Positions 2,545-32,000 are shown, counted from the first letter of the stretch. The stretch is 32,000 nt of DNA from Delftia acidovorans NBRC 14950 (GCF_001598795.1 NZ_BCZP01000022.1:1-32000); one strand, 5' to 3'. The notes: generated by a model not told the origin, from the letters alone. A program made the numbers and translations.

Positions 2545-2778
2545 GGGAGTGCCTGGGAGGACGTTCGCGGGAGGACACGAAGTTAGGCCTCTCCCGCCCT
2601 GGCGCCAACGACGCATTGCAGATATGGATATGAGCTTTGGGCACTGCGCGCGCATGCGTGGCGCAAGCGTGACGCACGTTGTGCGGCAGCCGCATATGCA
2701 TAGCCGCAATGCTTAGTTCACGCCGCGCCAGGAGCCTCCCAGACTGCGGGCATCGACTCTCTGCACTCCGGCACTCCC

Positions 2779-3772: not shown

Positions 3773-6700
3773 CTAGGGCACGGCGCTCCAACGCTTGGTG
3801 TGCGGCGCCACGCCGGGCAGGACCACCGTGATGTCCGCGCTGCCGACAGCCAGCGCCTTCACGGCAAGGTCCATGCACGGCTGGCCTGCGGGCCACGCAA
3901 CGCTGGCACTGCCCACGCCAAGGACTGAAGGCTGGGAAGAGACCACGCTGGCCTGCAGATCGGCCAGCGGATAGCTGAGCATGGCCCATGAGGTATCGCC
4001 CAGGCAGATGGCATAGGACTGCTGGTCGCCCACGGTCATCTGCACATTCGCCCGATCGGGGTCATCCCACTTCCAGCGATCGAAAGACAGCCGGGGCTCG
4101 ACGACCTCAATGCGCTCGCGGCCCGGCTCGGGATAGAGATCGGGCATGGAGGGTGCCGAGACCTCCAGGTCCGTCGCGCCCAGCGCCAGTCCGAGCACCC
4201 GGGCCGTGCCGCTGTTGCCGTCGGGCGCGATCTCGACCTGTTCCTGCGCGGAGCAAATGGCCGCATCAACGCAGCGCAGCCGCGCCTGCATGGGCTGCTC
4301 GGGAAGCTCCTCGCTCCCGAGATAGGTGGGCCTGAGCACCACATCGGACGCAAACCCCCGGGCCACAGCCATGTCGCTGCAGTCGCCGCAGGGACGGTTG
4401 ACGGTGAGGCCCCGGTCCGGCAGGACACGGATGGTCTCGCTGCGTGCACCCTGGCCTCCCGGCAGGTCGGCCCCGATGCGGTAGCTGCCCGGCTGCGTGG
4501 CCTCCTCCACGAACAGCGCCGGTGTGCAGCCGCTCCAGGTCTGGATGAAGGCCTTGTCCACGACATCGCCGTCCTGCCTCAGGTCGCGGATGTGCTGGAC
4601 CACATCGGCCGGCGAGCGATCGTACAGGCCCACGTCCACGCGCATGTCCGGGGCCACGGGGCGCTGCCGGTCGTAGGGCGCGGCCTCGGGCACGGACAGG
4701 CAGGCATGGAAGCCCTGGCGCAGGGACATGTAGCGCTGCGGGGTCAGCGCAGAGCTCGCGCTGGAGATCTCGGCCGATCTGCGGGTGGACATCTCGTCCT
4801 GGACGATGAGTGCTACGGATTGCGGGCCCACCACCTCGACGGGGATGGTGGCCGTGGTCAGTTGCCGCCCCCCCGCGATCAGGCGCGTGGTGCCCGGGGC
4901 CAGGCCGATGATTTCCACGTACTCGGAGGTGCTCCACTCCGACATCTGCACAGACGAACGCACGGTCTGGCAGATCTCCGGGTTCTCGCAGCGCAAATCG
5001 ACTGACACGCCTGAATACTGGTGCAGGCTGTCCGCATCCTTGCGCCACGACACGCGCACCGCCTGCGGCGCCGTCAGGCCCTGGCCGACCACCACCTTGC
5101 CGCTGTCGGCCGTGGCCGCAAGCGACAGCACCGTGGGCATCCAGACCTCGATCTCGCGGGACTCGCCTTCCGCAAAATCGCCGTGCACGAGCACGCTGGC
5201 CCGTCCCGGGCCGACGCCCTTGACCGTGACGGGCGCGTCGTACTGGTACATCTGGCCTTCGGCCAGCTGCGTTTCGGCGGGGGCCACAGCCAGGACCGCA
5301 GGATTGGAGCTGGACAGGCGGGCCTTCAGCCCTCCTGCGGGCGGGGGCGGCAGCACCGGCGCGATGATGAAGGTCTCTTCCTCGCCCACGACGAGGATGC
5401 TGGGGGCGTAGTCGAGGCCGACGCGGACCTTGTCCGTGAACGTCAGCCAGACGGGTTCCTCGCTCAGGTAGTTGCGCGCCTTGACAAAAAGCTGCGCGCT
5501 TTCACCCACCGCTGCCGCCGTGCCCTGGATCTGGATCTCCCTGGACGTCTCCCCTGCCGCCACCTTGACGCTGGCGGGATGCACCACCCGGCCCTCGGGC
5601 GTGCTGGTCAGCTGCACCTCCACGCCTTCGGCAGGCGCGGGGTGGGACAGCTGGACCGAGGCCCGGTGGGGATGACCGATCAGCATCGCGCTGTGCGGCA
5701 CTTGAAGACCGACCCGTGGCAGGTCAGCCACCGTGATGCTGGCCACGGCCTCGCCCAGATCGGGATGCCTGGCCGTGACCCGCGTGGTTCCGAGGTTGTA
5801 AGCGGAGCCTGTGACGTTGAAATCGGCCTGCGTCCGGCCTTCCTCCAGATGCAGGCTGGAGCCGACGCTGGCGATGTGGGTGGCACCAGTCGCGAGGCTC
5901 ACGGTCCGGCCGCCCGCAGGTGCCGGCACGCCCAGGTGCAGCGTCATGGTGCCGGTCCTGTTCCTGCCCACGGTGATCTCGGCAGGCTCGATGGAGAAGG
6001 GTGCGCGCCCCACCTCGATCAGGCCACCCTCCACGAGATAGGGAATGCCCGTCAGCGCCCATTGGACGGAGGTGGTGATGACACCCGCCGGCACCAGCAC
6101 GGCATCGAGCCCATTGCCCTCGGCGCGCAGGCCGCTGCCGCGAGGCGAGGACTGCAGGTCCACGCGCAGGGCCGGCCCCTTGTGGTGGAGGATGGAAACC
6201 TGGTCCAGGCCGGGCGAGGCCCCCTCGACGACCAGGCCACTGCCGTACTCGATGCGCACATGGGCCCATTGCGTGGCCCCGCTCCGCGTCCCCGCGAGAA
6301 AGCGCCATTCGCCCCAATCGCCGGGCGCGGGCTGGGGCCGCGAAGAAGTGATGGTGATCGGCTGCTGCGCTGTGCCCATTGCGCGTACGGCGCCGTCCCG
6401 CACGGTGAAACTGGCACCCGGCTCCATCTGTATGACGAGCCCGGGCTCCAGCGTCAGCGTGGCACCGGACTCCAGCACCACATCCCCCTGCAGGAGCACG
6501 GGCGAACTGGCTGCCGGCCAGGACGCGTTGCTACTGATGGACCCGGAGATACGCATGCCCGCCTGGGCCGGCAGCATGGCGGTCATCCAAAAAAGCGACC
6601 CCACAACCATCCACGCGAGCAGACAGGCGGCCCTGCGCAGCAGGAACAAAGCCTTCCGCGGACACTGGATCTGCGCCACCTTGGCGCGCCGTCCCGGCAG

Positions 6701-6790
6701 GGAATGCCCGCCGCAGTTGCGGGAAATGGGAAAGGTAGAAACAAGGGCGCATTGCAGCAATGCGCCTCCTCCCGGCAGACTGACGCGCAT
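3773..6790 (-). CDS. Large secreted/surface protein: beta-helix-like N-terminal region followed by several Ig-like beta-sandwich repeats
   Basis: 1005-aa ORF with host-like codon bias. Hydrophobic signal-like segment LLRRAACLLAWMVVGSLFWMTAMLPAQA. N-terminal pattern GDVVLESGATLTLEPGLVIQMEPGASFTVRDGAVRAMGTAQQPITITS resembles parallel beta-helix proteins. Later segments repeat with roughly 90-100-aa periodicity. The exact start is uncertain: ATG 6790 or an internal GTG. Confidence 0.7.
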   Translation of the reverse strand: MRVSLPGGGALLQCALVSTFPISRNCGGHSLPGRRAKVAQIQCPRKALFLLRRAACLLAWMVVGSLFWMTAMLPAQAGMRISGSISSNASWPAASSPVLLQGDVVLESGATLTLEPGLVIQMEPGASFTVRDGAVRAMGTAQQPITITSSRPQPAPGDWGEWRFLAGTRSGATQWAHVRIEYGSGLVVEGASPGLDQVSILHHKGPALRVDLQSSPRGSGLRAEGNGLDAVLVPAGVITTSVQWALTGIPYLVEGGLIEVGRAPFSIEPAEITVGRNRTGTMTLHLGVPAPAGGRTVSLATGATHIASVGSSLHLEEGRTQADFNVTGSAYNLGTTRVTARHPDLGEAVASITVADLPRVGLQVPHSAMLIGHPHRASVQLSHPAPAEGVEVQLTSTPEGRVVHPASVKVAAGETSREIQIQGTAAAVGESAQLFVKARNYLSEEPVWLTFTDKVRVGLDYAPSILVVGEEETFIIAPVLPPPPAGGLKARLSSSNPAVLAVAPAETQLAEGQMYQYDAPVTVKGVGPGRASVLVHGDFAEGESREIEVWMPTVLSLAATADSGKVVVGQGLTAPQAVRVSWRKDADSLHQYSGVSVDLRCENPEICQTVRSSVQMSEWSTSEYVEIIGLAPGTTRLIAGGRQLTTATIPVEVVGPQSVALIVQDEMSTRRSAEISSASSALTPQRYMSLRQGFHACLSVPEAAPYDRQRPVAPDMRVDVGLYDRSPADVVQHIRDLRQDGDVVDKAFIQTWSGCTPALFVEEATQPGSYRIGADLPGGQGARSETIRVLPDRGLTVNRPCGDCSDMAVARGFASDVVLRPTYLGSEELPEQPMQARLRCVDAAICSAQEQVEIAPDGNSGTARVLGLALGATDLEVSAPSMPDLYPEPGRERIEVVEPRLSFDRWKWDDPDRANVQMTVGDQQSYAICLGDTSWAMLSYPLADLQASVVSSQPSVLGVGSASVAWPAGQPCMDLAVKALAVGSADITVVLPGVAPHTKRWSAVP

Positions 6791-14530: not shown

Positions 14531-14773
14531 ATGATGTCCCTTCTGCCTTCCTCATCCGCCCCCAGCACGCCGGCTCACACTCCGGCCCGCACGCCACGGC
14601 GCCTGAAACCTGCCACCGTGGCGCGCCGCTGCGTGGGCAGCCTGATTCTGCTGGCCGGCGCGGTCATCGTGACCGGAGATCTCGTGGCGCTGTGGCGCGG
14701 CGCAGGCACTGATGCCGCACCCGCCGCCGCAGCCATGGCACCCGCCAGCGGCCTGGTGCCAACCACCCGATAG
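14531..14773 (+). CDS. Small hypothetical single-pass membrane protein upstream of mntH
   Basis: AAGGAG RBS 5 nt upstream of the ATG. One hydrophobic helix CVGSLILLAGAVIVTGDLVAL. No recognisable family. Confidence 0.4.
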   Translation: MMSLLPSSSAPSTPAHTPARTPRRLKPATVARRCVGSLILLAGAVIVTGDLVALWRGAGTDAAPAAAAMAPASGLVPTTR

Positions 14774-14818
14774 GCATCCCCCCTGCAACCGCGTGCCCCC
14801 GCCGGCGGAAAGGCCCCC

Positions 14819-16189
14819 ATGAACGACACCGTGCTTGCGGCCGAACAGGGCCGCTTCGGCGCCATCGAGCCGGACAACGGCCACGCGGGCACGCCCAGCC
14901 TGCCGCAGGTGCATCGCAGCATTGCCGTGCCGCGCGGCGACAGCCGCTCGGACAACGCGCGCCGCGTGCTGGCGTTTGCCGGGCCCGGCTACATGGTGGC
15001 CGTGGGCTACATGGACCCGGGCAACTGGGCCACCTCCATCGCGGGCGGCTCGCAGTTCGGCTACTCGCTGCTGGCGGTGATCTTTGCCTCCAACCTGATG
15101 GCCATGCTGTTCCAGGCGGCGGCCGTGCGCCTGGGCCTGGCCAGCGGGCGGGACCTGGCCCAGGCCTGCCGCGCGCAGTTTTCCCCGCGCATCAACCTGG
15201 TGCTGTGGTTCTTCTGCGAGATCGCCATCGTGGCCTGCAATCTGGCCGAGGTGCTGGGCATGGCCATCGGCCTGAACCTGCTGTTCGGCCTGCCGCTGGT
15301 GGCCGGGGTGTGCATCACGGTGGTGGATGTGATGCTGATCCTGGCGCTGCAAAGCCGGGGCTTTCGCTGCCTGGAGTCGGTGGTGATCGCCCTGGTGGCC
15401 GTGATCGGCCTGTGCTTTGCCGCCCAGCTGGTGTGGCTGCAGCCGCCCGTGGCGGCCGTGCTGCGCGGCCTGCTGCCGGGCATGGAGATCGTGGCCAATC
15501 CGCAGATGCTGTACCTGGCCGTGGGCATCGTGGGGGCCACGGTGATGCCGCACAACCTGTACCTGCATTCGTCCATCGTGCAGACACGCCGGCATGACAC
15601 CACGCCCCAGGGCACGCGGCAGGCCATCCGCTTGGCCACGCTGGACTCCACGGTGGCGCTGGGTCTGGCGCTGTTCGTGAACGCCGCCATCCTGGTGGTG
15701 GCGGCCGGCGCGTTCAACCGGCCCGGCCAGGCACCGGTGACCGAGCTGTCGGACGCCTACCACCTGCTGTCCCCGCTGCTGGGCGTGGGCATCGCCAGCG
15801 CGGTGTTCGGCGTGGCGCTGCTGGCCTCGGGGCTGAGTTCCTCGGTCACGGGCACGCTGGCCGGGCAGATCGTGATGGAGGGCTTCTTGCAGATCCGCCT
15901 GTCGCCCGCGCTGCGCGCCCTGCTGACGCGCTGCATCGCCATCGTGCCCGCCGTGGTGGCCACCGCCTGGTACGGCAGCACCGGCGCCAGCGCCCTGCTG
16001 GTGTTCAGCCAAGTGGTGTTGAGCCTGCAATTGCCGTTTGCCATCGTGCCGCTGCTGCTGTTCACCACGCGGCGCAAGACGCTGGGCGAGCTGGCCTTTG
16101 GCCCAAGGATGTCGGCGGTGCTGTGGGGCTGCGCGGCCCTGGTGGTGTCGCTGAACCTGTGGATGCTGCAGCGGCTGCTGATGGCCTGA
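14819..16189 (+). CDS. mntH: NRAMP-family divalent metal (Mn2+/Fe2+):H+ symporter
   Basis: GPGYMVAVGYMDPGNWATSIAGG (the DPGN motif), ATVMPHNLYLHSS, and about 11 transmembrane segments. Confidence 0.95.
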   Translation: MNDTVLAAEQGRFGAIEPDNGHAGTPSLPQVHRSIAVPRGDSRSDNARRVLAFAGPGYMVAVGYMDPGNWATSIAGGSQFGYSLLAVIFASNLMAMLFQAAAVRLGLASGRDLAQACRAQFSPRINLVLWFFCEIAIVACNLAEVLGMAIGLNLLFGLPLVAGVCITVVDVMLILALQSRGFRCLESVVIALVAVIGLCFAAQLVWLQPPVAAVLRGLLPGMEIVANPQMLYLAVGIVGATVMPHNLYLHSSIVQTRRHDTTPQGTRQAIRLATLDSTVALGLALFVNAAILVVAAGAFNRPGQAPVTELSDAYHLLSPLLGVGIASAVFGVALLASGLSSSVTGTLAGQIVMEGFLQIRLSPALRALLTRCIAIVPAVVATAWYGSTGASALLVFSQVVLSLQLPFAIVPLLLFTTRRKTLGELAFGPRMSAVLWGCAALVVSLNLWMLQRLLMA

Positions 16190-16274
16190 GGCGCCCTGAG
16201 GCTGTCCCGAGGTGGCCCCGGCGCCACGCGGCACCTTCATAGACGTTTTGCTTCTATCAAACGCCGCTCTTGTT

Positions 16275-16323
16275 CGTTGGTGGCTTGCCGCGAAGTTCTT
16301 AGATTGGTGCCTATAGCCACCAA
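16275..16323. promoter_or_regulatory. 10-bp inverted repeat with a third half-site upstream of the encapsulin operon (candidate operator or leader hairpin)
   Basis: gttggtggct (16275-16284) pairs with agccaccaac (16314-16323). An extra ttggtgcc sits at 16303-16310. The element lies about 30 bp upstream of the rhodanese ATG. Confidence 0.3.
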
Positions 16324-16351
16324 CCCGCGAATTCTCCGCAAGGACGACGAC

Positions 16352-16831
16352 ATGACAGCCCTCACTTTGGAAACCGCCTTGCCCCAGGCTCTGGAAGAGG
16401 CGCAGGAACACGCCCGCGCACAGGGGCTGGGCCACGCAGGCGGCGTGCGCCCGCCCGTGGCCTGGGCGCTGGTGCAGGCCGGCCAGGCCGTGCTGGTCGA
16501 TGTGCGCACGGCCGAGGAACGCAAGTTCGTCGGCCAGGTGCAGGACACCCTGCACGTGCCCTGGGCCACGGGCACGGCGCTGACGCGCAACCCGCGCTTT
16601 GCCCGCGAGCTGGAAGCGCGCCTGGCACCGCACGGCGGCAAGGAGGCCGTGGCCCTGCTGCTGTGCCGCAGCGGCAAGCGCTCGGTGCTGGCGGCCCAGG
16701 TGGCGGCCCAGGCCGGGTTCGCCCATGTGTTCAACGTGCTCGAAGGCTTCGAGGGCGAGATCGACGCGCGTCAGCAGCGCGGCAAAAACGACGGCTGGCG
16801 CTTCCACGGCCTGCCCTGGATTCAAGACTGA
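16352..16831 (+). CDS. Single-domain rhodanese sulfurtransferase (encapsulin-operon accessory)
   Basis: Start ATG 16352 (MTALTLETALPQ). LVDVRTAEERKF... and active-site loop LLCRSGKRS (C-X4-R). Confidence 0.85.
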   Translation: MTALTLETALPQALEEAQEHARAQGLGHAGGVRPPVAWALVQAGQAVLVDVRTAEERKFVGQVQDTLHVPWATGTALTRNPRFARELEARLAPHGGKEAVALLLCRSGKRSVLAAQVAAQAGFAHVFNVLEGFEGEIDARQQRGKNDGWRFHGLPWIQD

Positions 16832-16843
16832 AGGAGCACGCAG

Positions 16844-17758
16844 ATGGCCAGTTTCGACATTGCCGGACTCACCCAGAACCTGCATGCGGCGCGCCGCGAA
16901 TGGCGCGAGGCGCACGGCCGCACCCAGGAGCCCGGGGCGCGCGAGTTTCCCTCGCGCGACGCGCTTTCCACCCTCATCGACCAGCTCAAGGCAGCCCTGT
17001 TTCCCATGCGCCTGGGCCCGCACGACCTGCGCCAGGAAAGCGAGGACATCTTCGTGGCCCACCAGCTGGACTCGGCCCTGCATGCGCTGCTGGGCCAGAT
17101 ACGGTTGGAGCTGCGGCTGTCCGCGCCCCACACGGCAGCGGGCGCCGACGCCATGGCGCTGGACATCGCCCGCGCCTTTGCCGAGTCCCTGCCCCAGATC
17201 CGCCGCCTGCTCGACAGCGACGTGCTGGCCGCCTTCCAGGGCGATCCCGCCGCGCGCAGCGTGGACGAGGTGCTGCTGTGCTATCCGGGCGTGCTGGCCA
17301 TGATCCACCACCGCCTGGCCCACCAGCTGTACCTGCTGGAGCAGCCGCTGCTGGCGCGCATCGTGGCCGAGCTGTCGCATGCGCAGACGGGCATCGACAT
17401 CCACCCGGGCGCGAAGATCGGCCGGGGCTTTTTCATGGACCACGGCACGGGCGTGGTGATCGGCGAGACCGCCGTGATCGGCGAACGCGTGCGGCTGTAC
17501 CAGGCCGTCACCCTGGGCGCCAAGCGCTTTCCCACCGATGAGCACGGCCACCTGCGCAAGGGCCTGGCGCGCCACCCGGTGGTGGAGGACGACGTGGTCA
17601 TCTACGCGGGCGCCACCATCCTGGGCCGCGTCACGCTGGGGCGCGGCGCCGTCATCGGCGGCAATGTCTGGGTGACCGAGGACGTGCCGCCCGGCGCCCA
17701 CGTCACCCAGGCCCATGCGCGCGAGCACGCGCAGCAGCCCCGGGAGGTGGCCCTATGA
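16844..17758 (+). CDS. cysE: Serine O-acetyltransferase (CysE/SrpH-like)
   Basis: Left-handed beta-helix hexapeptide region GIDIHPGAKIGRGFFMDHGTGVVIGETAVIGERVRLYQAVTLG. 12-nt gap after the rhodanese gene. Confidence 0.9.
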   Translation: MASFDIAGLTQNLHAARREWREAHGRTQEPGAREFPSRDALSTLIDQLKAALFPMRLGPHDLRQESEDIFVAHQLDSALHALLGQIRLELRLSAPHTAAGADAMALDIARAFAESLPQIRRLLDSDVLAAFQGDPAARSVDEVLLCYPGVLAMIHHRLAHQLYLLEQPLLARIVAELSHAQTGIDIHPGAKIGRGFFMDHGTGVVIGETAVIGERVRLYQAVTLGAKRFPTDEHGHLRKGLARHPVVEDDVVIYAGATILGRVTLGRGAVIGGNVWVTEDVPPGAHVTQAHAREHAQQPREVAL

Positions 17759-18109: not shown

Positions 18110-19042
18110 ATGTCGGCAACAGTGGGCGGCACGACCGCGCTAGGCGACAACGCCGCGCGGCAACTGGCCAACGCAACCAAAACCGTTCCCCAGCTTTCGA
18201 CCATCAGCCCGCGCTGGCTGACGCACCTGCTGCAATGGTCGCCGGTGGAGGCGGGCATCTACCGCCTCAACCGCGTCAAGAACCCGGAGGCCATCAAGGT
18301 CACCTGCACGGCCAAGCAGGAAGACAACCAGCTGCCGCGCACCTATGTGGACTACGAGGAGCAGCCGCGCGAGTACTTCCTCAACGCCGTCTCCACCATC
18401 CTGGATGTGCACACGCGCATCTCCGACCTCTACAGCAGCCCGCATGACCAGATCAAGGAACAGCTGCGCCTGACCATTGAGACCATCAAGGAGAACCAGG
18501 AAAGCGAGCTGATCAACAACCCCGACTACGGCCTGCTGGCCCAGGTCACGGACGAGCAGCGCATCTTCCCGCTGACCGGCGCACCCACGCCCGACGACCT
18601 GGACGAGCTGCTGACCAAGGTCTGGAAGGAGCCCGCCTTCTTCCTGACCCATCCGCTGGCCATTGCCGCCTTCGGCCGCGAGGCCACGCGCCGCGGCACG
18701 CCGCCGCCCACGGTCAGCCTGTTCGGCTCGCAGTTCATCACCTGGCGCGGCATTCCGCTGATCCCCTCGGACAAGGTGCCCGTGGCCGATGGCAAGAGCA
18801 AGATCCTGTTGCTGCGCGTGGGCGACAAGCGCCAGGGCGTGGTCGGCCTGTACCAGCCCGGCCTGCCGGGCGAGCAAAGCCCGGGCCTGTCGGTGCGCTT
18901 CATGGGCATCAACAACCATGCCATCGCGTCCTACCTGATCTCGCTGTACTGCTCGCTGGCCGTGCTCACGCCCGACGCGCTGGCCGTGCTCGACGATGTC
19001 GAGATCGGCAAGTACCACGACTATCCCGACACCTACAAGTAA
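18110..19042 (+). CDS. Family 2A encapsulin shell protein (SrpI-type, HK97 fold predicted)
   Basis: 310 aa. The N-terminus AARQLANATKTVPQLSTISPRWLTHLLQWSPVEAGIYRLNRVK matches my recollection of Family 2 encapsulins. The size fits subtype 2A, which lacks the cNMP-binding insertion. GGAG RBS. Sits directly upstream of the cysteine desulfurase with a disordered N-terminal domain. Confidence 0.85.
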   Translation: MSATVGGTTALGDNAARQLANATKTVPQLSTISPRWLTHLLQWSPVEAGIYRLNRVKNPEAIKVTCTAKQEDNQLPRTYVDYEEQPREYFLNAVSTILDVHTRISDLYSSPHDQIKEQLRLTIETIKENQESELINNPDYGLLAQVTDEQRIFPLTGAPTPDDLDELLTKVWKEPAFFLTHPLAIAAFGREATRRGTPPPTVSLFGSQFITWRGIPLIPSDKVPVADGKSKILLLRVGDKRQGVVGLYQPGLPGEQSPGLSVRFMGINNHAIASYLISLYCSLAVLTPDALAVLDDVEIGKYHDYPDTYK

Positions 19043-19054
19043 AGAGGCCGGGCG

Positions 19055-20953
19055 TTGACCGTGTCTGCAATCACCTCCGTGGCGCCCCAGGCGCCCTTCG
19101 ACCCCGAGGCGCTGGCGCGCATGGCCAACGCCTTGTTCTCCGCCGCACCGGGATCGGCTCCTGCCCTACCGGGTCTTCCGGGTCTTCCCGGCCTGCCTGC
19201 TGGCGTCCAGGCCCCCGTGAACGTGGCGCCGCCCGGCTCGCCGCTGGCCAGCCCGGCAGGCCTGGGCCCCGGCGTGCCGGGCACGCCCATCCCGCAGGGC
19301 GTGGCGCCGGGCAGCAACCTGCTGCCGGCCTCGCCCGCGCCGCTGGCCTCGCTGGCCCACCGCGCGCCCGCGCTGCTGCCCCATGCCCAGGCCGGCAACG
19401 GCGTGCCCGACCATGTCGTGAGCGCCCTGCCCGCCTACGAGCCGCGCCTGGGATCGCAGGTGCTGGGCGTGCCCCAGCGCCAGGGCGATCCGCTGGATGC
19501 GCTGGCCGCGCTCCCGTTCACGGCACCTGCGTCACCTGCGTCACCCGCCGTGCCGCGCATCGGCGTGCCCACCGAAGGGCCCGGCATTGCGTCCACCGTG
19601 CCTTCGGCCGAGCCGCGCTTTTACTTTGTCGATCCCGTGGTGCTGCCCGCCGGCTACACCACGCCGGCCCATCCGCTGCAGCGCCAGCAGGCTGCGCACG
19701 GGGCAAGGCATGGCACGGCCGGCGTGCAGGCGCCCTTCGACGTGCATGCCGTGCGCCGGGACTTTCCCATCCTGTCCGAGCGCGTCAATGGCCGTCCGCT
19801 GGCCTGGCTGGACAACGCGGCCACCACGCACAAGCCGCGCGCGGTGATCGAGCGCATCCGCCACTTCTACGAGCACGAGAACTCCAACATCCACCGCGCG
19901 GCGCATGAACTCGCTGCCCGCGCCACCGACGCCTACGAGGGCGCGCGCGAGCGCGTGCGCCGCTTCATCAACGCGCCCGACGTGAACGAGGTCATCTTCG
20001 TGCGCGGCACCACCGAGGCCATCAACCTGGTGGCCAAGAGCTGGGGCTGGCAGCATGTGGGCGAGGGCGACGAGATCATCGTCTCCCACCTGGAGCACCA
20101 CGCCAACATCGTGCCCTGGCAGCAGCTGGCGGCCGCCAAGGGCGCGAAGATCCGCGTGATCCCGGTGGATGACTCGGGCCAGGTGCTCATCGATGAATAC
20201 CGCAGGCTGCTGAACCCGCGCACCAAGATCGTCTCCGTCACCCAGGTCTCCAACGCGCTGGGCACGGTCGTGCCCGTGCAGCAGATCGTGGAGCTGGCCC
20301 ACCAGGCGGGCGCACGGGCCCTGGTCGATGGCGCGCAGTCGGTCTCGCACATGGCCGTGGACGTGCAGGCCATCGGTGCGGACTTCTTCGTGTTCTCGGG
20401 CCACAAGGTCTTCGGCCCCACGGGCATCGGCGTGGTCTGGGGACGGCGCGAGGTGCTGGAGGACATGCCGCCCTGGCAGGGCGGCGGCAACATGATCGCC
20501 GACGTGACCTTCGAGAAAACCGTCTACCAGCCCCTGCCCAACACCTTCGAGGCCGGCACCGGCAACATTGCCGACGCCGTGGGCCTGGGCGCCGCCATCG
20601 ACTACGTGCAGGCCCTGGGCATGGAGCGCATCGCGCGCTACGAGCACGATCTGCTGCAGTACGGCACGCAGGCGCTGGCGCCCATCCCCGGCCTGCGCCT
20701 GATCGGCACGGCGGCCGACAAGGCCAGCGTGCTGTCCTTCGTGCTCAAGGGCTGGACCACGGCCGAGGTGGGCGAGGCGCTCAACGCCGAAGGCATCGCC
20801 GTGCGCACCGGCCACCACTGCGCCCAGCCCATCCTGCGGCGCTTCGGCGTGGAGACCACCGTGCGGCCCTCGCTGGCCTTCTACAACACCACCGAGGAAA
20901 TCGACCGGCTGGCGGCCGTGGTGCAGGGGCTGGCGGCGCGCAGGCGGGGTTGA
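19055..20953 (+). CDS. SufS-like (class V) cysteine desulfurase with ~227-aa disordered N-terminal cargo-loading domain
   Basis: TTG start 7 nt after an AGAGG RBS. Residues 1-227 are Pro/Ala/Gly-rich and low-complexity (PGLPGLPGLP, APASPASPAVP) with ALARMANALFS at residues 19-29. The catalytic domain has DNAATTHKP, the PLP-Lys motif FSGHKVFGPTGIG and the Cys loop RTGHHCAQP. Confidence 0.9.
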   Translation: MTVSAITSVAPQAPFDPEALARMANALFSAAPGSAPALPGLPGLPGLPAGVQAPVNVAPPGSPLASPAGLGPGVPGTPIPQGVAPGSNLLPASPAPLASLAHRAPALLPHAQAGNGVPDHVVSALPAYEPRLGSQVLGVPQRQGDPLDALAALPFTAPASPASPAVPRIGVPTEGPGIASTVPSAEPRFYFVDPVVLPAGYTTPAHPLQRQQAAHGARHGTAGVQAPFDVHAVRRDFPILSERVNGRPLAWLDNAATTHKPRAVIERIRHFYEHENSNIHRAAHELAARATDAYEGARERVRRFINAPDVNEVIFVRGTTEAINLVAKSWGWQHVGEGDEIIVSHLEHHANIVPWQQLAAAKGAKIRVIPVDDSGQVLIDEYRRLLNPRTKIVSVTQVSNALGTVVPVQQIVELAHQAGARALVDGAQSVSHMAVDVQAIGADFFVFSGHKVFGPTGIGVVWGRREVLEDMPPWQGGGNMIADVTFEKTVYQPLPNTFEAGTGNIADAVGLGAAIDYVQALGMERIARYEHDLLQYGTQALAPIPGLRLIGTAADKASVLSFVLKGWTTAEVGEALNAEGIAVRTGHHCAQPILRRFGVETTVRPSLAFYNTTEEIDRLAAVVQGLAARRRG

Positions 20954-27500: not shown

Positions 27501-28421
27501 ATGACCCTCAAACAGCTCGAAGCCTTCTACTGGGCCGCCACCTGCCTGAACTTCAGCGTGGCCGCCGACCGCGTGCACCTGTCGGTCTCATCGCTGTCCA
27601 AGCGCATTGCGGAGCTGGAGGCTTCGCTGGGCGTGCAGCTGTTCGACCGCAGCGGCCGCGCCGCCGAACTCACGCCCCAGGGCGAGCAGCTGCTGCCGCG
27701 CATCCGCGAGCTGCTGCACGGCGCCGCCCAGCTGCGCGAGGCGGCGGGCCGCAGCGTGGGCCTGCAGGGCCGCTGCCGCATCGGCTTTGGCGAACTCAGC
27801 GGCCTGACCTGGCTGCCCCGGCTGGTGCAGCGGGTGGCCGAGCTGCACCCCGACCTGCAGCTGGAGCCCCACACCGACATCGGCCAGGTGCTGGAGCAGC
27901 GCATCGTCGATGGCGAGCTGGACTGCGTGGTCATCGCCGGGCCATCGTCGCGCAGCAGCCTGGCCTTCGAGCAGGTCGCCCAGGTGCGCTTTGTCTGGGC
28001 CGCCAGCGACGACTTCATCGCCCGCGCCGGCACCGGCCTGCCCCGGCGCCTGGTGCGCGAGCAACTGCTGATCGCCCTGCCCACCGGCTCGGGCGCCACG
28101 CGCACGCTGGACGACTGGCTGGGCCGCCACGGCCTGGCCGTGGAGCGGCGCCTTTCCTGCAACAGCTGGGGCGCCGTGGTGGGCATGGTGGTGGACGGCC
28201 TGGGCTTCACCTACATGCCCGAGCAATGGGCCCTGGCCCTGCAGGAACGCGGCCGCCTGCGCGTGCTGGACGGCAGCGCCGAGGCCGCAAAGCACAGCGC
28301 GCTGGCCCCGCTGACCTACACCGTGCAATGGCGCCGCGACGATGCCCGGCCGCTGATCACGGAAATACGCGAGATCATCCGCAGCGTGATCGATTTCCCG
28401 GCGCCGCGCTGTTTGAGTTGA
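27501..28421 (+). CDS. LysR-family transcriptional regulator, divergent from the hydroxy-acid operon
   Basis: N-terminal HTH MTLKQLEAFYWAATCLNFSVAADRVHLSVSSLSKRIAELEASLGVQLFDR, plus a LysR substrate-binding domain. Confidence 0.9.
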   Translation: MTLKQLEAFYWAATCLNFSVAADRVHLSVSSLSKRIAELEASLGVQLFDRSGRAAELTPQGEQLLPRIRELLHGAAQLREAAGRSVGLQGRCRIGFGELSGLTWLPRLVQRVAELHPDLQLEPHTDIGQVLEQRIVDGELDCVVIAGPSSRSSLAFEQVAQVRFVWAASDDFIARAGTGLPRRLVREQLLIALPTGSGATRTLDDWLGRHGLAVERRLSCNSWGAVVGMVVDGLGFTYMPEQWALALQERGRLRVLDGSAEAAKHSALAPLTYTVQWRRDDARPLITEIREIIRSVIDFPAPRCLS

Positions 28422-28713
28422 ATATCACTGATTTCAGGGATATTCAAAATAGCAATCCTGTAGTATTTGAATGAACAATCAATATCAACAATAAACACTC
28501 ATCAATACATTGATAAGACATTATCAATTTCAAATATCAATCGATTCAGATCTTTCCCTATGGGAGCACTCATCTTTCGCATGGATTTCTTGGCATACTG
28601 AAAATCCTTTCTCAAAGAAATTTGACAATCCTTTGCAAAAACTGCCTATGATTTAACAACTCTTTTCAATTATTCACGACTGGAACTCCTGCGTTTCCAG
28701 TCGATTTCCATTC
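28422..28713. promoter_or_regulatory. AT-rich (~one-third GC by eye) intergenic control region with clustered ATCAAT hexamers and several inverted repeats
   Basis: ATCAAT at 28478, 28501, 28523 and 28536, and ATTGAT at 28509 (giving ATCAAT-ac-ATTGAT at 28501-28514). AATCGATT palindrome at 28539-28546. Inverted repeat GAATATC/GATATTC at 28420-28445. Perfect 8-bp inverted repeat gactggaa-N9-ttccagtc at 28678-28702, just before the ATG. Confidence 0.6.
28622..28652 (+). promoter_or_regulatory. Candidate sigma70-type promoter for the tail-collar locus
   Basis: TTGACA (28622-28627) and TATGAT (28647-28652). The 19-nt spacer is longer than optimal, so this is tentative. Confidence 0.3.
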
Positions 28714-29556
28714 ATGAGCACTGCGCCTGCAAATACCAGTCTCCGCAGCCCTCACCCCGAATCCTGCGGTGCGCTGGCGCTTCAACCCATTGGCTCCGGC
28801 GACGAAGCCGCTCTCCTGGCCATCTTCGCCTCCACACGCGAGCAGGAGCGCGAACAATTCGGCTGGCCCGAGGAGCAATGGAATGCCTTCATTCGCCAGC
28901 AGTTCATGGCGCAGCACACCCAGTATTCGACGGCCTACGCCAACCCCAGTTTCGATCTGGTGCTGCGCGATGGCGAGATAGCGGGCCGGCTGTATGTGGA
29001 CCGCAGCCCGCAGGAAATCCGCGTGGTGGATATCGCCCTGCTTCCCAGGCACCGTCGCCAGGGCGTGGGGCGGCAGTTGCTGCAGGCTTTGACGGATGAG
29101 TCAGATGCCCTGGGCATTGACCTGGGCCTGCATGTGGAGAAGAACAACCCCATCCTCGGCCACTACCAGCGCCTGGGCTTTGTCACCGAGGCCGATCGCG
29201 GCGTGTACTGGTATATGCGCCGCGCGCCGCAGCCTGCGCGCAGGCCCTGCCTTGAGGATTTCACCGGCCTGGTCGGCACCGATTTCGCGTTGCAGCTGTA
29301 CGGTGCCGGGTCCGTGGCCCTGCGACTGGAAGAGGCCAAGGTCGGCCAGGGACTGCATACCTCGCACTGCTCGCTGCACTTCAGCGGACCCGACATAGCC
29401 CGCCCGGCCCATGACACCTATCTGCTTTCCCACGAGCGCCTGGGACGCTTTGCACTGTTCATGGGGCCCGTCATGGGCACAGAGCGGGGGCAGACCAGCT
29501 ACCAGGCACTCATCACCCGCATGAACCCATCGATCAAGGAGGAGGGCACGCTATGA
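28714..29556 (+). CDS. GNAT N-acetyltransferase fused to a ~100-aa C-terminal domain of unknown function
   Basis: GNAT motif A VVDIALLPRHRRQGVGRQLLQAL...HYQRLGF. C-terminal part LEDFTGLVGTDFALQLYGAGSVALRLEEAKV...CSLHFSGP...DTYLLSHERLGRFALFMGPV has no family I can name. Its stop overlaps the next ATG (ATGA at 29553-29556). Confidence 0.8.
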   Translation: MSTAPANTSLRSPHPESCGALALQPIGSGDEAALLAIFASTREQEREQFGWPEEQWNAFIRQQFMAQHTQYSTAYANPSFDLVLRDGEIAGRLYVDRSPQEIRVVDIALLPRHRRQGVGRQLLQALTDESDALGIDLGLHVEKNNPILGHYQRLGFVTEADRGVYWYMRRAPQPARRPCLEDFTGLVGTDFALQLYGAGSVALRLEEAKVGQGLHTSHCSLHFSGPDIARPAHDTYLLSHERLGRFALFMGPVMGTERGQTSYQALITRMNPSIKEEGTL

Positions 29557-30074
29557 GCGAGGCATTCATTGGAGAAATCCGTCTTTTCGCGGGCAACTAC
29601 GCGCCCGAGGGCTGGGCACCGTGTGACGGCCGGCTGCTGAGCATCAACGACAACTCCGCCCTGTTCACCCTGCTGGGCACGACCTACGGCGGAAATGGTG
29701 TCACCCAGTTCGCACTGCCCGACCTGCGGGGCCGACTGCCCATAGGCCAAGGCCAGACCCTGGGCGGAACCAACCGCATTCTGGGTCAGCAGATCGGCAC
29801 CGAAAACGTCACGCTGAACGTCAACCAGATACCCCAACACAGCCACGCATTCTCCGCCGCGGCTGCGGCCAGCACCGGCAAGCCGTCGGGACAGGTCCCG
29901 GCGGCGGTCACGGGGTTCAACCTGTATGCGCCGGCCCCCGCCACCCCCACCGCCAAGCTGGCCCCCGCCAGCGTGTCATTCGAGGGCGGCGGACAGTCGC
30001 ACAACAACGTCATGCCCAGCCTGGTGCTGAGCTACATCATCAGCCTCTACGGCATCTTCCCCAGCACCTCCTAA
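29553..30074 (+). CDS. Phage-tail-collar-domain protein (MdpB-like), paralog 1
   Basis: FIGEIRLFAGNYAPEGWAPCDGRLLSINDNSALFTLLGTTYGGNGVTQFALPDLRGR...QIPQHSH...GGGQSHNNVMPSLVLSYIISLYGIFP. Strong AAGGAGGA RBS. Confidence 0.9.
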   Translation: MSEAFIGEIRLFAGNYAPEGWAPCDGRLLSINDNSALFTLLGTTYGGNGVTQFALPDLRGRLPIGQGQTLGGTNRILGQQIGTENVTLNVNQIPQHSHAFSAAAAASTGKPSGQVPAAVTGFNLYAPAPATPTAKLAPASVSFEGGGQSHNNVMPSLVLSYIISLYGIFPSTS

Positions 30075-30093
30075 CGCTGGACAGGAGCATCAC

Positions 30094-30594
30094 ATGGACC
30101 CCTTCCTCGGAGAAATCCGTGCTTTCGGCTTCGGCCTGATCCCCAAAAACTGGCTGCCGTGCGACGGACGCCTAATGCCTGTCAGCACGAACCAGGCACT
30201 GTTCGCCCTGCTGAGCGTCAGATATGGCGGCAACGGCACAACGACCTTCGGCCTGCCCGATCTGCGTGGCCGTGTACCCCTGGGATTCAGCGCAAACGAC
30301 CAGCTCGGCCTGCTCAACGGCACGGAAACCGTCACGCTGTCGGTCAACCAGATCCCCCAGCACACTCATTCGGTGTCTTGCAGCAGCACGGTAGCCACTA
30401 CCAGCGATCCCACCAATGCCGTGATGGCAGAGGCCGCTGGCGGCCTGGGCGCCTATGGCGTGCCCAACGGCTCCTTCCTGGCCCCAACTGCCGTGGCCCT
30501 CGGCGGAGGCAGCCAGCCCCATCCGAACATGCAGCCCTCGCTGGTCGTGAACTGGTGCATCGCCATCAGCGGCATTTTCCCGGCGCGTAACTGA
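30094..30594 (+). CDS. Phage-tail-collar-domain protein (MdpB-like), paralog 2
   Basis: FLGEIRAFGFGLIPKNWLPCDGRLMPVSTNQALFALLSVRYGGNGTTTFGLPDLRGR...QIPQHTH...GGSQPHPNMQPSLVVNWCIAISGIFP. AGGAG RBS. Confidence 0.9.
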   Translation: MDPFLGEIRAFGFGLIPKNWLPCDGRLMPVSTNQALFALLSVRYGGNGTTTFGLPDLRGRVPLGFSANDQLGLLNGTETVTLSVNQIPQHTHSVSCSSTVATTSDPTNAVMAEAAGGLGAYGVPNGSFLAPTAVALGGGSQPHPNMQPSLVVNWCIAISGIFPARN

Positions 30595-30617
30595 AGACCT
30601 TCCAAGGAAACATCGAC

Positions 30618-31160
30618 ATGGCAGATCCTTTCACCGGTGAGATCCGTGCATTCGGCTTCAACTACGCTCCGGTCAACTGGGCCTTTTGTTGGGGCCAGAG
30701 CATCCCGATCCAACAGAACTCCACGCTGTATTCCATCATCGGCGTCCAGTTCGGCGGAAACGGAACCACTGACTTCCTCCTGCCCGATCTGAGGAGCAGG
30801 GTGGCCATGGGCAACGGCACGGGTCCCGGCCTGTCACCGTTCGTGGTCGGGGAGGCCGTGGGCAGTCCCACAGAGACGCTGCTTCTGACTCAGTTGCCTG
30901 CGCACAACCACGGAATCAACGTACAGGGCGCAGACGCCTCCGTGGCCGTGCCCGGCGACAACGTGCTGGCGAAGGGCGGCCAGGGCGTGCCTCCACGGAC
31001 CAGCGCCAAGCCGACCTACACCGTGGTCGCGCCAGATTCCACCCTGGCATCGACGGCCCTTTTTCCGACCGGCAGCAATCAGTCCCACAGCAATCTCCAG
31101 CCCTACCAGGCGCTGAATTTCTGCATCTGCCTCTACGGCGATTTTCCTATCCGTCCCTGA
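30618..31160 (+). CDS. Phage-tail-collar-domain protein (MdpB-like), paralog 3 (most divergent)
   Basis: FTGEIRAFGFNYAPVNWAFCWGQSIPIQQNSTLYSIIGVQFGGNGTTDFLLPDLRSR...QLPAHNH...GSNQSHSNLQPYQALNFCICLYGDFP. AAGGAA RBS. Confidence 0.9.
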   Translation: MADPFTGEIRAFGFNYAPVNWAFCWGQSIPIQQNSTLYSIIGVQFGGNGTTDFLLPDLRSRVAMGNGTGPGLSPFVVGEAVGSPTETLLLTQLPAHNHGINVQGADASVAVPGDNVLAKGGQGVPPRTSAKPTYTVVAPDSTLASTALFPTGSNQSHSNLQPYQALNFCICLYGDFPIRP

Positions 31161-31190
31161 TCACGAGCGCTGCACCGCAGTCCCATCGCC

Positions 31191-32000
31191 ATGGCAACCA
31201 ACCACTTCTTCCCGCCCCCCTCCACCTTCCGTTTTCTGAGGCTGTGGTTTGCCTGGCTCATGGGACTGCTGTTTTCTCTGGTACTGCCCGCGCAGGCGGC
31301 AGTCACCCCTGGAACGCTGGACTTCGGCAACAACCACACTCGCTATGCCAACGTTGCCACGCCCTACAACGAGCTGAACTTCAGCGGGCAGTGGGTCTAC
31401 TTCACCGAGGCAGACCTGCAGGCCACACAGAACGGCATCAACAGCAACGGTGATGCCATTACCTCGGACGCCCTCACTGGTAGCGCCGTCATCAAGCCGG
31501 TCAACGCCGGCGACCGGTTCAGCCTGGTCAGCGCCCGCATCTTCGCGTACGGTCAGATCAGCCAGTTCACATTGACCGGCTATGTCAACGGCAATCCTGT
31601 AGCAGGGGCAACGACGACGTTCCTCCGAAGCTCAGCAATGCAAACGAGCTTCGTCGAGGTCGATCTCAGCGCCCTGGCCAATGTGGACGAGGTGAGGATA
31701 TCCAACACCAATACCGGCGGCACCGAAGGCAGCGCCTTCGCGCTGGATGACCTCGTGGTGCTGGCCGGCGCCACGCCGACGCCCACGGTGACGTCCATTT
31801 CGCCCACCGCCGGCCCTGTCGGGGGCGGCGCCAGCGTGACCATCACCGGCACCGACCTGTCAGGAGCCACGGCCGTGCGCTTCGGTGCCACAACCGCCAG
31901 CTACATCGTCAACAGCAACACCCAGATCACCGCAACCGCCCCCGCAGGCAGTGCCGGCACGGTCGATGTGACCGTCTCCACGGCAGGAGGCACCAGCGCC
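31191..32000 (+). CDS. Secreted protein with N-terminal beta-sandwich-like domain and IPT/TIG repeat(s); partial, continues beyond the window
   Basis: Not in the ORF track because there is no stop before the window end. My translation from ATG 31191: MATNHFFPPPSTFRFLRLWFAWLMGLLFSLVLPAQA|AVTPGTLDFGNN...FALDDLVVLAGATPTPTVTSISPTAGPVGGGASVTITGTDLSGATAVRFGATTASYIVNSNTQITATAPAGSAGTVDVTVSTAGGTSA. The last ~80 aa is a classic IPT/TIG pattern. Open for all 270 codons. Confidence 0.7.
   Translation, partial: MATNHFFPPPSTFRFLRLWFAWLMGLLFSLVLPAQAAVTPGTLDFGNNHTRYANVATPYNELNFSGQWVYFTEADLQATQNGINSNGDAITSDALTGSAVIKPVNAGDRFSLVSARIFAYGQISQFTLTGYVNGNPVAGATTTFLRSSAMQTSFVEVDLSALANVDEVRISNTNTGGTEGSAFALDDLVVLAGATPTPTVTSISPTAGPVGGGASVTITGTDLSGATAVRFGATTASYIVNSNTQITATAPAGSAGTVDVTVSTAGGTSA

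Follow-up and report, generated by a model that had tools for sequence, protein, structure and literature searches.

A cross-phylum cassette of three tail-collar proteins, a GNAT–DUF6916 acetyltransferase and a giant surface protein in Delftia: a candidate determinant of strain-specific recognition

Stand-alone tail-collar proteins are known from two non-phage settings, the rhiABC operon of Rhizobium leguminosarum and the mrpAB operon of Microcystis, where RhiB and MrpB are COG4675 'microcystin-dependent protein' collars and where the operons have been linked to cell-cell or host interaction (PMC13133039, PMC6969944, PMC3328848); MrpC of Microcystis, which shares the mrp name, is a glycosylated surface pilin (PMC12397347). 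Here we describe a locus at positions 28,714 to 32,000 of a 32,000-nucleotide stretch of Delftia acidovorans NBRC 14950 (GCF_001598795.1 NZ_BCZP01000022.1:1-32000, the window), in which three consecutive collar genes lie between a gene for a GNAT–DUF6916 fusion, a putative acetyltransferase, and the gene of a giant surface protein. Compared by description, RhiB and MrpB are its nearest cellular relatives, and the Delftia collars are likewise stand-alone, devoid of signal peptides and found outside phage. The RhiB/MrpB operons have one recognised collar gene, RhiA/MrpA partners with no Pfam domain, quorum-sensing regulators and no GNAT or DUF6916, whereas the Delftia locus lacks both a rhiA/mrpA-type partner and quorum-sensing regulators, which sets it apart from RhiA/RhiB/RhiC by their descriptions. 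RhiB was not among our tblastn matches, and the Rhizobium plasmid locus that we retrieved, when considering rhiABC as a possible degenerate triplet, is a GNAT module, not rhiABC. To our knowledge, stand-alone tail-collar proteins of the MdpB/RhiB kind have been without an assigned function since the 1990s; bacterial genomes that encode them number in the thousands. Our literature search found no published function for collar triplets, in line with an earlier note made on this DNA from its sequence alone, and no paper describing the GNAT, DUF6916 and triplet module.

The other close point of comparison is phage T4 gp12, a homotrimer with a single metal ion on its axis, bound by histidines of all three chains. 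The domain family of the gp12 short-tail-fibre tip and related tips (PF07484; PDB 1ocy, 1pdi, 5iv5, 8kec) covers the whole of each ~170-residue Delftia collar, and the two share the GEIR, W.C.G, YGG.G and LPDLRGR motifs and an HxH pair. Unlike gp12, the Delftia tip is free-standing, without a shaft, and is encoded by three diverged paralogues rather than by one homotrimer gene; also unlike gp12, the collars lie outside any phage, together with GNAT and DUF6916.

The five Delftia genes form one operon on the plus strand, with open reading frames at 28714-29556 (280 amino acids), 29553-30074 (173 amino acids), 30094-30594 (166 amino acids) and 30618-31160 (180 amino acids), followed by a fifth frame that is open from 31191 to the window end at 32000. 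An ATGA overlap couples the start of collar 1 to the stop of GNAT–DUF6916. The gaps between the collar genes, read from the sequence, are 19 and 23 nt, and the ribosome-binding sites in front of the three collar genes read AGGAGGAG, AGGAG and AAGGAA, AGGAG being that of collar 2. Beyond the window end the sequence was read on contig L001 (GCA_000741825.1), where a strong terminator with a 14-bp stem and a T-run lies 16 nt past the giant-gene stop (L001:14855-14887); no terminator of comparable strength occurs between the five genes. The reading frames, ribosome-binding sites, ATGA coupling, gaps and shared collar motifs all fall where the earlier note had put them. With Pfam cut-offs of 20.7 bits for PF00583, 27 bits for PF21880 and 24 bits for PF07484, the features of the operon within the window are as follows.

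28714..29226, plus strand: GNAT acetyltransferase domain, residues 1-171 of the 280-residue fusion (PF00583, Acetyltransf_1, 44 bits)
29227..29556, plus strand: DUF6916 domain, residues about 172-280 (PF21880, 60.8 bits)
29553..30074, plus strand: collar 1, 173 amino acids, orthogroup beta, equivalent to position 2 of collars-first loci (PF07484, 98 bits; HxH motif QIPQHSH)
30094..30594, plus strand: collar 2, 166 amino acids, orthogroup alpha, equivalent to position 1 of collars-first loci (PF07484, 84 bits; HxH motif QIPQHTH)
30618..31160, plus strand: collar 3, 180 amino acids, orthogroup gamma, with the GPGLS insertion that is the position-3 signature (PF07484, 82 bits; HxH motif QLPAHNH)
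31191..31298, plus strand: signal peptide of the giant protein, residues 1-36, ending ...LPAQA/AV, read from the translation
31299..31775, plus strand: cassette-specific N-terminal domain of the giant protein, about 160 amino acids, distal to the C-terminal anchor and the most variable part of the locus
31782..32000, plus strand: first of nine IPT/TIG repeats (Pfam TIG), the gene running on past the window

The collars are three complete tail-collar paralogues, as had been claimed, each far above the PF07484 cut-off (82-98 bits versus 24), with pairwise identities of 40-50%. Their sequence matches in the PDB are T4 gp12 (E = 1e-3 to 5e-5) and phage long-fibre structures, and their HxH aligns with the PSHQH of the solved phage fibre 8kec. 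The HxH pair is kept in all three window collars and in the consensus of all three triplet positions across 171 collars. A methionine stands exactly six residues ahead of the GEIR motif in 149 of 160 collars, and in 113 of 170 the distance from the preceding in-frame stop to GEIR is at most 25 codons, leaving no room for a signal peptide. The proteins begin six residues before the collar motif and lack signal peptides, the latter in agreement with the earlier reading. Tested for the hallmarks of phage tail fibres, the collars have no N-terminal shaft and no tail, baseplate, capsid or lysis neighbours within 10 kb.

The cassette is a widespread cross-phylum module and not a local oddity. We scanned one genome per species for the GNAT subfamily and annotated the best 80 loci with hidden Markov models (HMMs) of our own. 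The module-type GNAT subfamily occurs in at least 429 species; the closest relatives of the window GNAT are in Delftia, and stand-alone GNATs of about 50% identity are found in distant bacteria. The annotated loci span Proteobacteria, Desulfuromonadota, Acidobacteriota, Chloroflexota, Gemmatimonadota, Planctomycetota, Verrucomicrobiota, Bacteroidota, Firmicutes, Actinobacteria and Omnitrophota. The triplet recurs with GNAT, a co-occurrence that the earlier note had proposed looking for: collars adjoin GNAT in 66 of 70 informative loci, 53 loci have an intact triplet, and DUF6916 is present in 66 of the 80 GNAT-seeded loci. Collars are truly missing in four loci only (L059, L061, L064 and L077, with no collar within at least 4 kb), three of which keep DUF6916, so the enzyme pair can exist without adjacent collars. 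Two layouts are seen, with GNAT and DUF6916 ahead of the collars in type 1 (16 loci including Delftia) and the collars ahead of GNAT and DUF6916 in type 2 (36 loci). Geotalea daltonii and metagenome contigs have the order GNAT, DUF6916, three collars and giant surface protein. The module is also found on megaplasmids, and it is returned again when sampling begins from DUF6916 or from plasmid and chromid collars (Deinococcus, Ruegeria, Azospirillum, Ensifer, Rhizobium and Paenibacillus).

Within a triplet the collars are about 47% identical, and for 159 of 171 the best match outside the own locus occupies the same triplet position. When HMMs of the type-2 positions were applied to type-1 collars, these were read as 2-1-3 (18/20, 16/20 and 20/20), meaning that the same three ancient orthogroups are present throughout and that the first two are swapped in the GNAT-first layout. 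The GNAT-first locus of Paenibacillus also reads 2-1-3, and a Gemmatimonadales locus (L075:8299-17866) has nine collars beside a single GNAT, reading 1-2-3 three times. The structural core and the HxH pair are common to all the orthogroups, and the GPGLS insertion is specific to position 3. If the collars formed an obligate 1:1:1 heterotrimer, a strict one-of-each rule that outlasts gene rearrangement would be expected. The rule strengthens the heterotrimer suggested in the earlier note and falls short of proving it.

Several lineages carry variations on this theme. Aliiroseovarius has a single gamma-type collar and no GNAT, a reduced variant. In Rhodobacterales a 405-residue protein is encoded after the collars (L097:9598-10815 and L100:9595-10812); in Aliiroseovarius it is annotated DUF4331. 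In seven Acidobacteriota loci (L027, L069, L070, L074, L076, L081 and L092; Thermoanaerobaculia and others), a protein of about 260-300 residues with a twin-arginine translocation (TAT) signal lies between the collars and GNAT and could be a lineage-specific exported partner. A collar protein detected in the exoproteome of Ruegeria pomeroyi (PMC4949626) could not be tied to a triplet.

The first gene had been read as an acetyltransferase fused to a domain without a name; that second domain is now identified as DUF6916 (PF21880). The acetyl-CoA-binding motif of the GNAT half (Q/R-x-x-G-x-G/A) reads RRQGVGRQL, its glycine being nearly invariant in an alignment of the module-specific GNAT subfamily to which the window GNAT belongs. 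The nearest solved GNATs by sequence are protein N-alpha-acetyltransferases such as RimI and Naa50, and the RimI equivalog model scored the protein well below its cut-off (TIGR01575, 31.4 bits versus 86.4). Judged by sequence, the window GNAT is a subfamily distinct from RimI that resembles N-alpha-acetyltransferases. DUF6916 is a separate gene of about 100 amino acids in most other genomes (for example L007, L011 and L093), and an alignment-based search returned a family of 2345 clusters of stand-alone proteins of this length. Its AlphaFold 2 model is a small six-stranded β fold (predicted local distance difference test score, pLDDT, 87) for which neither the PDB nor viral models offered a credible match. 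The whole fusion was modelled as a compact unit with an ordered linker (pLDDT 91; predicted template-modelling score 0.82). This compact model, together with the fusion of the two parts here and their separation elsewhere, argues that GNAT and DUF6916 work together physically. Among close homologues the GNAT half is 99, 94 and 85% identical where DUF6916 is 80, 68 and 74%, so that DUF6916 is always the faster-diverging part. Residue 2 of the collars is alanine or serine in 143 of 160 cases (89%), the class of second residue that Rim-type enzymes acetylate. Taken with the likeness to N-alpha-acetyltransferases, this is suggestive, and only suggestive, of a GNAT that may acetylate collar N-termini.

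The fifth gene encodes a protein of 1421 amino acids in full on L001, with its C-terminus outside the window. The secreted IPT/TIG protein expected downstream of the collars is borne out by a signal peptide, nine IPT/TIG repeats and a C-terminal anchor, the IPTL-CTERM sorting signal at residues 1388-1416 (PF18203, 34.5 bits; TIGR04174, 30.4 bits). The AQA/(A or T) junction of the signal peptide is conserved in homologues. Pfam and NCBIfam further identify two He_PIG domains, a cadherin-like domain and a choice-of-anchor-U domain, and neither database has a match to the N-terminal domain. Roughly half of the loci have a giant Ig-repeat protein as the module's immediate neighbour. Among type-1 loci, our HMM finds the window-type N-terminal domain in the giants of 12; in about 21 type-2 loci, the giant has another conserved domain at its C-terminus, about 120 amino acids long and ending G.C..P, again with no Pfam or NCBIfam match. 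Examples of the latter, with the giant directly upstream of the collars, are L058:7900-8286, L074:7100-7492, L081:7200-7589 and L093:6150-6513. In about 33 loci, drawn from distant phyla, a giant with one or the other end domain adjoins the collars and shares their strand. In the giants examined, the cassette-specific domain sits at the end opposite the anchor; type-1 giants are anchored through a C-terminal IPTL-CTERM signal or autotransporter barrel, and the Deinococcus giant through a lipobox at its N-terminus. Neither end domain is homologous to collars or to DUF6916 (hhalign probability below 1%). The window-type N-terminal domain is rare, with 11 clusters among 1.84 billion representative proteins; in the stronger matches of that search its start lies no more than about 60 residues from the N-terminus, and every instance seen with its context adjoins a module.

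D. tsuruhatensis and D. acidovorans carry the locus at one and the same place in the chromosome, and it is not a strain-specific form of the accessory island that the earlier note had envisaged; the variation lies in an internal patch. Nucleotide comparison of the window with two other Delftia genomes gave the following identities.

Upstream genes, TctC to LysR: 93-99.5%
GNAT half of the fusion: 96-98%
DUF6916 half of the fusion: 85%
Collar 1: 77%
Collar 2: 75%
Collar 3: 71%
N-terminal domain of the giant protein: 61%, with a synonymous divergence (dS) of 1.2
C-terminal part of the giant protein: 94%
Downstream YjgF gene: 97%

DUF6916, the collars and the giant's tip domain therefore form a recombining hypervariable patch next to a constant catalytic domain, and the recombination boundary falls at the GNAT/DUF6916 domain junction. 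In the patch dS is 0.3-1.2, versus 0.01-0.15 in the flanks, and the ratio of nonsynonymous to synonymous divergence (dN/dS) is 0.3-0.45. These values point to old functional alleles that have been swapped by recombination, rather than to decaying genes or a recent selective burst.

We propose that a heterotrimeric knob, a dedicated GNAT–DUF6916 enzyme and a giant stalk act together as a strain-specific recognition cassette, a tentative model to which we give somewhat less than an even chance. The three collars, alpha, beta and gamma, would assemble 1:1:1 into a knob resembling the receptor-binding tip of T4 gp12, in which one metal site on the axis would be formed by the HxH pairs of all the chains. 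GNAT and DUF6916 would constitute a two-part protein acetyltransferase, GNAT being the constant catalytic part and DUF6916 a variable adaptor that recognises the collars, possibly for acetylation of their conserved Met-Ala/Ser N-termini. The giant Ig-repeat protein would serve as a cell-anchored stalk whose distal, cassette-specific domain partners the knob, docking it or serving as its ligand. Strains would trade the DUF6916–collar–tip block as an allelic cassette, which would make the system a strain-specific determinant of surface recognition, for adhesion or cell-cell recognition. A fuller version, in which a cross-phylum surface-recognition system comprises an obligate heterotrimer with its own two-part N-acetyltransferase, leaves the cell by a signal-peptide-free route, caps or recognises the stalk, and has alleles that set adhesion or kin recognition, we regard as doubtful.

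Several observations count against this proposal. Chief among them is that the collars, GNAT and DUF6916 have no signal peptide, whereas the giant is Sec-exported; a meeting of knob and giant would need another export route or cell lysis, which is the main problem of any surface model. All-against-all clustering of neighbouring genes found no secretion system or regulator conserved near the module, the only recurring families being shadow open reading frames, generic ABC ATPases, UvrA synteny and the TAT-signal protein of seven Acidobacteriota loci. Only about half of the loci have a flanking giant whose end domain can be recognised, and the type-1 N-terminal and type-2 C-terminal end domains are not homologous to each other (hhalign probability below 1%). 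The co-divergence of the patch could reflect a single recombination block and not interaction among its products, and the one-of-each rule is also compatible with three separate homotrimers that are all obligatory. A Foldseek search with the modelled GNAT matched GNAT structures (E = 4e-8), and these matches are generic. In Azospirillum oryzae (L098:1-18543), three collars, GNAT and DUF6916 lie amid lasso-peptide, 2-oxoglutarate-dependent oxygenase and glycosyltransferase genes, with no giant nearby.

The lack of signal peptides in the core components and of conserved secretion genes is what would be expected if the module worked in the cytoplasm, the collars being a metal- or ligand-binding scaffold or the substrates or partners of the acetyltransferase, and the giants incidental neighbours. 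Such a role would also suit the loci, about half, with no recognisable partner giant, the four that have GNAT and no collars, and the Azospirillum module inside its lasso-peptide and glycosyltransferase cluster. We nonetheless judge it unlikely: in about 33 loci of distant phyla the collars have an end-domain giant beside them on their own strand, the very rare N-terminal domain is always beside a module where its context is seen, the hypervariable patch covers both the collars and the tip domain, and the collar fold is that of an extracellular receptor binder.

Were the collars to form three separate homotrimers, each would be a lectin or receptor-binding knob of its own specificity, and all three would be needed. 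The phage homologues are homotrimeric, as in T4 gp12, each collar gene has its own ribosome-binding site, a complete HxH in each paralogue would suit a homotrimer equally well, and Aliiroseovarius retains a lone gamma-type collar. Independent binders usually vary in number, however, and the collars come in threes or a multiple of three, one per orthogroup, in more than ten phyla and even after reordering; their tight spacing and translational coupling suggest equal dosage. On balance this arrangement seems distinctly unlikely to us.

Improbable, in our estimate, is a bacteriocin-like or contact-dependent competition system, in which the knob would target other cells, the patch would set target or immunity specificity, and GNAT would provide immunity or modification. 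Recombination that swaps old alleles of a recognition patch is reminiscent of polymorphic competition loci, tailocins and phages use the receptor-binding fold, and some microcin systems employ GNATs as immunity enzymes. Yet conservation is highest in GNAT, which does not co-vary with the patch, there are no lysis or release genes, and the type-2 C-terminal domain is conserved across phyla and not polymorphic. No toxin domain was found in any component with Pfam, NCBIfam or PADLOC, although an unknown toxin fold is possible, and the PADLOC anti-phage defence models gave 0 matches among the five proteins.

A decaying prophage or tailocin tail-fibre remnant is essentially refuted: the collars match tail fibre and minor tail proteins in PHROGs and phage databases and are labelled 'tail fiber protein' by NCBI, but their phage homologues are at most 37% identical and embedded in longer tail proteins, no phage structural, lysis or integrase gene lies within 10 kb on either side of the Delftia locus or within 10 kb in about 90 related loci, GNAT relatives number 0 in 2.9 million viral contigs, and the genes are under purifying selection in an architecture conserved across phyla. 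The non-phage character given to the locus in the first reading is therefore upheld, and downstream the giant gene is followed by housekeeping genes, with no prophage or tailocin module.

Upstream of the operon lie a LysR gene and a catabolic operon that is transcribed divergently. The AT-rich region of about 290 bp and the lowered GC content (GC) described before were measured as 292 bp and as 0.61-0.66 against about 0.70 in the flanks. The leader contains the following elements.

28422..28713, plus strand: AT-rich leader of 292 bp, presumed promoter region of the operon, read from the sequence (GC 0.51 in 28501-29000)
28418-28447: 14-nt palindrome, TTGAATATCACTGA / TCAGGGATATTCAA, overlapping the LysR stop codon
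28480-28640: ATCAAT-type repeats inside the AT-rich leader

The palindrome and the repeats may be binding sites for a regulator. A scan of the leader with the sigma-70 consensus gave no promoter match, and a scan with Rfam, including known RNA elements such as the c-di-GMP riboswitch, gave no match.

Elsewhere in the window, the plus strand at 18110-20953 carries an SrpI-like gene for a type 2A encapsulin shell (PF19307, E = 1e-102) and, after it, a gene for a 632-residue Aminotran_5/cysteine desulfurase, a pair that resembles a known combination of encapsulin and cargo. An orphan fimbrial-protein gene (PF00419; 21152-22243, plus strand) lies in the window's lowest-GC patch (0.51-0.57 versus about 0.70), and no usher or chaperone gene was seen near it. 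Three long open reading frames have no Pfam match (451-2583, plus strand, 711 amino acids; 3773-6787, minus strand, 1004 amino acids; 14552-17725, minus strand, 1057 amino acids) and may be shadow frames of DNA with 70% GC or real unannotated genes.

The module gives stand-alone collars a defined genetic unit, with three orthogroups, a dedicated GNAT and DUF6916 and, often, a giant adhesin-like partner, and would correct the routine misannotation of collar genes as prophage tail fibres. If the heterotrimer and its link to the surface hold, a phage receptor-binding domain would have been domesticated into a multi-chain device for cellular recognition, DUF6916 would gain a function, and a new type of strain-specific surface determinant would come into view, one relevant to biofilms, symbiosis and phage-receptor biology. 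The hypothesis can be tested in culturable hosts such as Delftia, Geotalea daltonii, Methylomicrobium album, Ruegeria TM1040 and Paenibacillus.

Known systems offer parallels for single aspects of this proposal. In the head of complement C1q, three paralogous chains encoded by tandem genes form a 1:1:1 trimer with an axial metal ion; the resemblance is one of analogy only, as fold and lineage are unrelated and the Delftia heterotrimer is itself inferred. Myxococcus receptors of the TraA type occur as strain-specific alleles and are built from a signal peptide, a distal recognition domain that varies, a stalk of repeats and a C-terminal tag for sorting, and the chimeric trimeric fibre adhesins of Bdellovibrio use phage-fibre-like tips for cell recognition. 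These too are analogies, and neither system is known to have a separate collar triplet, GNAT or DUF6916. A fusion of PilV to a tail-collar domain in the shufflon of a conjugative pilus provides a precedent for a collar as the variable recognition tip of a surface appendage (PMC9881135). There, a single fused gene is varied by DNA inversion, whereas the Delftia cassette has separate genes for three paralogues and varies through allelic exchange by recombination.

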